NCBI GenBank assembly: GCA_951406725.2
Contig: OX597819.1
Location: 69,192,001 to 69,256,000, forward strand
DNA: 64,000 nt
Reading direction: 5' to 3'
Origin: Octopus vulgaris
Taxonomy: Eukaryota
The position numbers and the translations under genes were made by a program. Each line of letters begins with the position of its first letter. Positions within the stretch are counted from its first letter, which is position 1. This document shows, in pieces, positions 31,251 through 32,792 of this stretch. The notes beneath the pieces are model-generated. The model saw only the letters and a list, made by a program, of their open reading frames with translations, did no database searches and was not told where the DNA came from.

Positions 31251-31969
31251 CCTAATTTTAAATATTTCAGTATTCAATAAAGCATTGTGTTTTTTTCTTA
31301 GCTGATATATGTAAGTTTGCGCTTTAAAAAAAATCTTATATAATAATGTTTTATTGCTGTAATTTTTATATTTCCGCTGATTTTCTTGAGAACACTACGC
31401 TTCCAAGAAGGTCCCTTTGACATATGGCAAAAGTGATGTGCTTATTCTGTAATATTTTATAGTGTGTGTGTGTACGTGCGAGCGAACTGATGTGTTTGTA
31501 TGCTTGCGTGTTTGTCGTAATTTGATTTATATGTATCGCATTGCATTGCATTATTGCTTACCTTCAATAGTTGTCTTCTTTTAACACATCTGAAATGGCA
31601 GAATCGTTACATCGCAGAACTACAAAATGCTTTGTAATATTTTCTACAACACACTGCGCTTTCAGATCAAATCTCACTGAGGGCATTTTTCTCTTTCATT
31701 CTCTCGGGGACTCATAAAAATTACCGGCCATTTACTCGGTGGTTTTGTGGGACATTTAAAGCACCGCACAGCATGTGTGCGATATTTCTTACGGCCGTTC
31801 ACATTTCCATATCCTGGGAAGTAAACCGAAAACCGATTAGCACCACTACCTGACATCTTTGGTTGGAAGTAATAACATCACATTTAACATAACACCACAT
31901 CACACCAGTTTCAGTGGTTTTTGAACAAAATTGCTGTGCTCACTACAAAATGGAGATAAATTATTCCTT

Positions 31970-32489
31970 ATTTTCATTATTTATATTTGACAGATATTTG
32001 TACTCATCTTGTTTGTTGTTAACACAACGTTTTGGCTGATTTACCCGCCAGACTTCATGAGGTGTCTTGGAGAAATTTCGAACATGGATTCATATTCCTA
32101 AAGCCTTGTTCGATGCTATTATTATTATTATTATTATTATTATTATTATTATTATTATTATTATTATTATTATTATTATTATTATTATTATTATTATTAT
32201 TATTATTATTATTATTATTATATTTATTATTATTATTATTATTTAGGTTACTGCTTGGAATTGAACTCGGGATCTTGGGTTTAGTAGCCCACGCTCTTAC
32301 ACACTATGCCACATGCCCGAGTTCGGTTCCAAGCAGGAATGAGAATCCAGGTTCGAAATTTGTCCATGACATCTTATGAAGGCTGGATGGTATATCAGCC
32401 GAAACGTTGTGTTAACAAGATGTGGACAAATATCCATCAAATGTAAATAATGTAAATAATGTAAACAATTCCTCACCTCTTAAATATAG
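31970..32489. mobile_element. Family A foldback element (HHR arm, (TTA)n, tRNA-like head, HHR arm) with 12-bp TSD
   Basis: Inverted arms 31970-32100 and 32335-32489. tRNA-like head on the minus strand at 32246-32318. AAATTATTCCTT at 31958-31969 and 32490-32501. Confidence 0.85.
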
Positions 32490-32792
32490 AAATTATTCCT
32501 TTTCAAATGATTCCTGGATCCACCAGATCTTATCAAACGAAGATGTTAAAGAAGCAAACTTTTATTTCTGTTTTTTTTTGTTGTTAATATCTAATTTGTG
32601 ATGCTTAATTGCTAAATACCTTCACTGTTACTTATGTATACCAGTTACTTCATATAATCTTAACCGATAGTATTAATTCGGGGTAAGGGTGAGAGCTAAC
32701 ATATTCGTTAGCACGCCGGCCAAAATGCTTAGCATACATACATACATGATACATACATACATAAATACATACATACATACATATATACATAC

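Follow-up and report, generated by a model that had tools for sequence, protein, structure and literature searches.

A foldback insertion in Octopus vulgaris is probably a decayed pair of Penelope-type pLTRs with a tRNA-Arg-like promoter module

Structure of the foldback insertion

The window analysed here, a 64,000-nt stretch of Octopus vulgaris DNA, contains at 31958-32501 an insertion made of two inverted arms, a central tRNA-like head and a flanking direct repeat (Table 1). The parts named in the initial annotation (hammerhead arms, TTA tract, tRNA-like head, inverted B-box half and 12-bp TSD) were all found where it had placed them. The inverted arms match over 84 nt at 86% and over 46 nt at 87%, and are 81-87% alike overall. 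The left arm contains the first codons of a Penelope ORF in a decayed form, as judged from frame continuity with ORF-bearing copies. The right arm lacks the AAT tract, which was skipped in a second jump; this jump lies at 2 nt of microhomology (32335-32336). A transcript started at the head would not include the other arm and would terminate near 31950, at the first T4, so that the long-hairpin read-through RNA that had been proposed cannot form. The window element is a dead insertion and no hairpin replicon.

A 9-nt unit, present in 0-3 extra repeats, was observed at the tail-less start site (body ~130-150; window 32440-32469). The number of units varies among family copies and between arms, the reading frame being preserved, which suggests slippage of the RT or repeated priming.

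Table 1. Positions of the foldback insertion, its parts and the other family copies in the window
Feature	Position	Strand	Basis or remark
Left TSD	31958-31969	.	12-bp direct repeat
Left arm, pLTR body ~1-150 of 176, tail-less end	31970-32116	-	family comparison
Minimal type I hammerhead, decayed (left arm)	32021-32066	-	predicted cut between 32026 and 32025; compared with family majority
(AAT)n tract, part of pLTR between head and body	32117-32243 (about)	-	variable length
tRNA-Arg-like head, 5' part of pLTR	32242-32319	-	sequence comparison
B-box in head	32257-32268	-	sequence comparison
A-box in head	32300-32311	-	one mismatch in window copy
Head-to-head junction	32316-32319	.	3-4 nt microhomology between head 5' end and B-box base
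Right arm, truncated inverted head, positions 52-71 (B-box half)	32317-32336	+	
Right arm, pLTR body positions 19-173	32335-32491	+	family comparison
Predicted ORF start codon in right arm	32339-32341	+	sequence
Minimal type I hammerhead, decayed (right arm)	32368-32413	+	predicted cut after 32408; compared with family majority
Optional Penelope tail	32468-32491	+	right arm only in window copy
Right TSD	32490-32501	.	12-bp direct repeat; tail end overlapped by 2 nt
Second family copy	21025-21339		tailed body and B-box half on -, full head on +
Third family copy	2995-3145	+	tail-less body after AAT tract, without head

The repeat family is the pLTR of an autonomous Penelope/Poseidon-type element

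Majority sequences built from 45 heads and 31 bodies define the family unit as an 80-nt head, an (AAT)n tract of variable length and a 176-nt body. In the 2.8-Gb genome assembly (G000), 8 of 40 10-kb stretches taken without selection contained family sequence, nine clusters in all; scaled up to the genome, this amounts to roughly 60,000 copies, with a wide error. Copies are single or inverted and not arranged head-to-tail, apart from one short fragment array, and short copies consisting of the pLTR only outnumber those bearing an ORF. Words near-identical to the family are present in sequencing runs under seven organism labels, and no run listed with such words is recorded as RNA. Two metagenome scans returned no relatives, so that they give no DNA control from outside the genome for the analyses of TTTT runs and of the head presented below.

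Copies reaching beyond the head were obtained by a pattern search for hammerheads preceded by non-family sequence; in these copies the extension encodes a PLE C-terminus. A protein search gave 1,889 candidates, of which 150 were scored and 10 regions fetched. No intact ORF was seen among the 150 scored, the longest open frame being 375 aa. An autonomous PLE sharing the arm was nevertheless found in the form of a near-full-length copy (L183), which consists of a partial 5' pLTR, a broken ORF of ~2.3 kb, a stop, a ~30-nt spacer, the head, the AAT tract, the body and the tail. The end of the ORF is joined to the head in seven further copies (L186-L192). In the autonomous element, the ORF (RT and predicted endonuclease) and its stop are thus followed by a spacer of ~30 nt, the head, (AAT)n, the ORF start with hammerhead, and the tail.

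In the pLTR body, the first ~51 codons of the element's own ORF overlap the minimal hammerhead. The body frame is continuous with the ORF in L183 and L185, and it agrees at 12 of 17 residues with the N-terminal end of an independent homolog of 847 aa. In another subfamily, the start codon and the hammerhead are separated by 6 additional bases; three of its seven arms are in frame, one is in frame but shorter and three are shifted.

The RT domain is recognised by Pfam (PF00078, E 2.4e-10). For GIY-YIG (PF01541), the family C-terminus gave no Pfam match; a Cys/His pattern is visible in this region, which over 320 aa shares 53% of its residues with P0001, and on the basis of motifs and homology the partner is predicted to carry an endonuclease. 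The partner protein is 55% identical to P0001 and 35% identical to a protein of 836 aa from Anolis, which is probably of the PAc family; both are PLE-type proteins of ~840 aa. Over shorter stretches, its identity to Neptune-type ORFs is about 30%. The Neptune CX2-5CxxC linker Zn-finger is absent from both family frames and present in both Neptune-type controls. In a quick tree of 21 rows, the partner groups apart from the Neptune-type elements of the genome.

What looked like a SINE is thus the pLTR of an element of the Penelope/Poseidon type. Neither a head separate from the partner nor a 3' end in common with a LINE was found: head, tract and body all lie within the pLTR. The proposal of the initial annotation that the repeat is mobilised by a Penelope-like RT and not by a LINE therefore holds, and so does the association of a tRNA-like A/B-box head with a hammerhead, which is borne out by the sequence; the head is not, as had been assumed, the property of a separate SINE. 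In the reading that we favour and consider probable, the window element is a decayed head-to-head pair of Penelope/Poseidon-type pLTRs, and the pLTR starts with a tRNA-Arg-derived A/B-box module that is likely to be a Pol III promoter.

Another candidate for the partner, the dominant and most intact PLE family among those retrieved by a GIY-YIG search (781-aa Neptune-type ORF), was rejected: it shares nothing with the body and has a different, U3-A8 hammerhead. This young Neptune-type PLE (L131-L134, e.g. G000:C16:20834500-20842500) is represented by many uninterrupted 781-aa RT-GIY-YIG frames, with an upstream Asn/Pro/Thr-rich frame and direct pLTRs that carry a U3-A8 minimal hammerhead.

The inversion is produced at insertion

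The analysis of two-armed copies was based on 41 of them, taken from junction-biased, body-biased and unselected loci after removal of two duplicates of window copies. Exactly one arm is tailed in 40 of the 41 (p = 2e-11 versus 0.5), the tail being ~26-30 nt long. Flanking direct repeats of at least 8 nt were detected in 30 of the 41 copies versus 62 of 1,640 mismatched flank pairs, and repeats of at least 12 nt in 17 of the 41 versus 1 of 1,640. The 12-bp TSD of the window copy is beyond chance, and the TSDs of family insertions are mostly 8-17 bp. The 3' ends of bodies are bimodal: among 117 matches, 47 end at 141-152 and 59 at 172-176.

The initial annotation regarded the repeat as a distinct foldback SINE that inherits its inversion from a master element and gives rise to an RNA forming a long hairpin, to be cut by two hammerheads. 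The recurrence of the junction that it reported near 21247-21275 was confirmed at 21239-21339, where the second window copy has a microhomology junction as at 32316-32319 and a different arm make-up. The junction of the window element also has 14 exact matches in the genome, compared with none for a reversed control. These 14 matches stand, however, against 5,224 intact B-box 20-mers, and the 47 head-to-head junctions that were examined fall into 41 distinct forms, 18 of the 47 having overlapping bases; the window form accounts for two of the 47, both inside the window. Of the 14 matches, 10 were fetched: four carry the tail on the truncated arm and four on the full arm, in two it could not be assigned to either, and none of these 10 copies has the second jump of the window copy. 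Moreover, the junction lies on a microhomology and the promoter faces away from the second arm. The master model is largely refuted and we give it hardly any credence; the window junction is a microhomology hotspot, and the inversion is produced at insertion.

The foldback architecture itself, which had been put forward as novel, is known Penelope behaviour. An inverted pLTR, a one-sided tail of ~30 nt, a TSD of ~9-10 bp and an ORF start located in the pLTR are described as typical of Penelope (PMC3846280, PMC8557442). As the pLTR of the autonomous element consists of the head, (AAT)n, the ORF start with its hammerhead and the tail, the foldback is a textbook Penelope structure. In vitro, the Anolis Poseidon protein is reported to cut and extend both strands and to use two internal priming sites that bound the tail (PMC11167929).

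At a diagnostic T/A site, both arms agree in 28 of 32 copies (Fisher p = 3e-5) and disagree in 4. This agreement points to one template lineage per insertion, although it could instead reflect time-structured subfamilies or gene conversion. Arms that share variants more than by chance would also be expected if the second arm arose not by priming at the second target end but from the first cDNA by snap-back self-priming, or else through repair at a later stage. Several junctions indeed carry a short inverted copy of the head 5' end (e.g. L010, L030), and self-priming has been proposed in PMC3846280. Snap-back predicts that the head is copied first, whereas most second arms skip to internal points; second arms also end at a different, defined 3' site beside the TSD, and the four discordant arm pairs likewise count against it. 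We regard this origin of the second arm as unlikely.

Hammerheads

The two hammerheads of the window copy are on opposite strands. In the left arm, G5 and G12 are changed and a stem II pair is mismatched, and in the right arm G5 is changed. The family-majority hammerhead has a canonical core, and 21 of 65 arms keep the core intact. Rfam matched no hammerhead in the element arms, either at the gathering cut-off in the window or at E<=5 in four loci, and folding of two majority monomers with ViennaRNA gave no hammerhead dimer. The minimal hammerhead motif, including pairs on opposite strands 100-700 bp apart, has been defined in PMC4209133. Insertion by Anolis Poseidon is described as proceeding without hammerhead cleavage in vitro (PMC11167929). 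The hammerhead is inherited pLTR sequence, on which insertion probably does not depend.

A tandem array of a ~76-nt hammerhead-containing body fragment, with a retrozyme-like layout, was observed at L177-L182 (G000:C25:19151770-19155942). Hammerhead-like motifs of other families were also noticed (L066:7657 and 8147; L063:204; L151:269), two of them forming an opposite-strand pair with a distance of about 500 bp. Another repeat, whose hammerhead-like motif has a core of the U3-A8 type, is present in the window at 21790-21990 (+) and 2699-2910 (-). Its two copies are ~77% alike and both directly abut the AAT tract of a family copy, in place of body or head.

The tRNA-like head and Pol III

When the head was compared with 31 tRNA loci of the genome, representing 7 isotypes, tRNA-Arg(TCT) (z 7.3) and tRNA-Arg(TCG) (z 6.8) matched best, ahead of Ala, Thr and Cys at about 6. 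The head was called as a tRNA neither by ARAGORN nor by Rfam, the latter at the gathering cut-off in the window and at E<=5 in four loci. In the main family, the A- and B-boxes fit what we take to be their consensus and are about 33 nt apart; the A-boxes also fit in the second subfamily and in an older relative. Exact 20-mers were counted in the genome for the B-box (5,224), for the 5' part of the head (4,941) and for the spacer immediately upstream (1,073), with the caveat that the three words may differ in mutability. The resulting 4.6-fold step is located at the expected Pol III start. Of 33 heads from loci not picked by their 5' end, 17 stop within -15 to +8 of the head start, 5 extend upstream and 11 stop inside.

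In the sense strand of L183, no TTTT was found in 2,632 nt versus 5.8 expected from base shuffles (p = 0.002). In 11 related, non-independent copies, a single private run was found in 14,388 nt versus 33 in 11,463 nt of Neptune-type ORFs. With codon control, the comparison becomes 0 versus 3.1 expected from Neptune codon usage (p = 0.039) or 2.0 from own-codon shuffles (p = 0.08). TTTT is also absent from 2 of 5 other retroelement fragments. As a sign of Pol III, the lack of TTTT is suggestive only.

RNA-seq data comprised three raw runs (about 6% of each) and one contig set. Family reads occur in both directions and 79-81% of them continue into unlike sequence. No pile of starts or ends was detected at the head or at the cut site in these libraries, which are ill-suited to short uncapped RNA. 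We infer Pol III use from the 5' step and from the codon-sensitive lack of TTTT, the RNA-seq being uninformative.

The main rival to a Pol III start is a hairpin stop. A GC-rich hairpin lies exactly at the head start, so that a stop of the RT could equally create the 5' step; palindromes have been described at the 5' ends of pLTRs (PMC3846280). The element would then be an ordinary Pol II-transcribed Penelope, the tRNA-like segment a passenger of the pLTR and the short copies 5'-truncated cDNAs stalled at this hairpin. Such a view accords with the heavy 5' truncation described as typical of PLEs and with the pLTR promoters of studied PLEs, which are TATA/Inr-type or intron-overlapping (PMC8557442, PMC3846280). 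About a fifth of the heads run upstream into the ORF, and it is difficult to see how a Pol III RNA, being uncapped, would be translated. It leaves aside, however, the normal spacing of A- and B-boxes in the main family, the A-boxes of the second subfamily and of the older relative, the position of the step and a sense strand devoid of TTTT. Weighing these points, we find the Pol II explanation unlikely, and the head of the pLTR, judged on its sequence, is likely to be a Pol III promoter.

Proposed mechanism

With a Pol III promoter in the pLTR, transcription would start a few bases before the head, and any 3' pLTR would give a short RNA of ~280 nt containing the RT-binding and start region. 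The RT of the element would use this RNA in trans. The RT/endonuclease would cleave the two strands of the target about 12 nt apart, and cDNA would be primed from each target end at two start sites, the tail end (~176) and the tail-less end (~141-152). The two cDNAs, usually of the same template lineage, would be joined 5'-to-5' via a short microhomology. The pLTR would thus act as the transposon's own SINE.

A more far-reaching version is conceivable, and we advance it tentatively. The whole 2.7-kb coding RNA of the autonomous retrotransposon would be made by Pol III from a captured tRNA-Arg promoter in the upstream pLTR, terminators would have been purged from the coding strand, and the same promoter in every downstream pLTR would be a built-in SINE that out-replicates its parent. 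If the ORF is transcribed by Pol III, the question arises how an uncapped Pol III RNA gets translated.

Comparison with known systems

Anolis PAc (PMC11167929) and Adineta Pen2a (PMC3846280), both Penelope/Poseidon PLEs, are described with the same features as the octopus element: the ORF start and a minimal hammerhead in the pLTR, an optional tail of ~30 nt on one of two inverted pLTRs, a TSD near 9-12 bp, and an RT without the Neptune Zn-finger followed by an endonuclease, which in the octopus element is predicted. As far as these elements are described there, the octopus pLTR differs by the tRNA-Arg-like A/B-box module and the (AAT)n tract at its start.

The schistosome repeats Sm-alpha and Sj-alpha resemble the octopus family in being short and in combining an apparent Pol III promoter with a type I hammerhead downstream of it (PMC6765202). 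They are described there as tandem units with an active canonical hammerhead and without a named partner; the octopus copies are dispersed or inverted, their hammerhead is of the minimal PLE type and the same sequence is present in an autonomous element. Sm-alpha and retrozymes are treated in PMC6765202 and PMC7761336. Animal non-LTR retrozymes are likewise short pLTR-derived hammerhead repeats for which PLE enzymes are proposed, but they are defined as tandem arrays (bioRxiv 10.64898/2026.07.22.740005), unlike the single or inverted octopus copies; the main text of that preprint, to the extent available, makes no mention of tRNA, Pol III, octopus or cephalopod. Cassandra, Helenus and Ajax also have 5S- or tRNA-like sequence in their terminal repeat, but are non-autonomous LTR elements (PMC10886601), the octopus element being a protein-coding PLE. 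OR2 is listed as a CORE-SINE (PMC4758252, PMC5804259), unlike the octopus PLE family.

By description only, the octopus SINEs OK, OR1 and OR2 can be set beside the family, since they share a tRNA-derived head and a high copy number; they probably come from a similar host group. Ohshima and Okada reportedly introduced OK/OR1/OR2 in 1994, OR1 and OR2 being said to be of tRNA-Arg origin.

Neither a PLE whose pLTR has a promoter of tRNA origin or of the Pol III type nor the octopus family is described in the literature covered, i.e. full-text articles with few subscription journals and with Repbase/Dfam outside the scope, including the available text of PMC13282606, PMC6962438 and PMC8967140. What appears to be new is a tRNA-derived promoter module in the pLTR of an autonomous Penelope, at which an excess of copies begins as in SINEs and which is putatively used by Pol III. 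If true, this would directly exemplify a SINE-like repeat with a tRNA head that is moved by a Penelope RT, with the partner identified. A Pol III promoter inside a pLTR would also offer a route to Sm-alpha-type repeats, and the short two-armed insertions with TSDs, numbering in the tens of thousands, form a large natural data set on the origin of the inverted repeats and tails of PLEs.

Other repeats associated with the family

An older relative, ~70% alike and without an AAT tract, is present in one copy at L171:1110-1450 (-). Its A-box is nearer to tRNA-Arg(TCT); downstream of it, only one B-box-like motif is present, immediately adjoining the hammerhead on its 5' side. In the main family, the body contains a second B-box-like motif that resembles the 3' half of the head (p = 0.025), which hints at an old partial duplication.

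The ends of other retroelements are often located at the AAT tract of the family (L016, L022, L041, L046, L143, L147), consistent with secondary insertion into a microsatellite. An LTR retrotransposon fragment with an integrase-like frame (L057:1990-3177) adjoins a truncated family copy. Elsewhere in the window, an open frame at 49659-49982 (+) presumably resembles the N-terminus of a mariner-type transposase.
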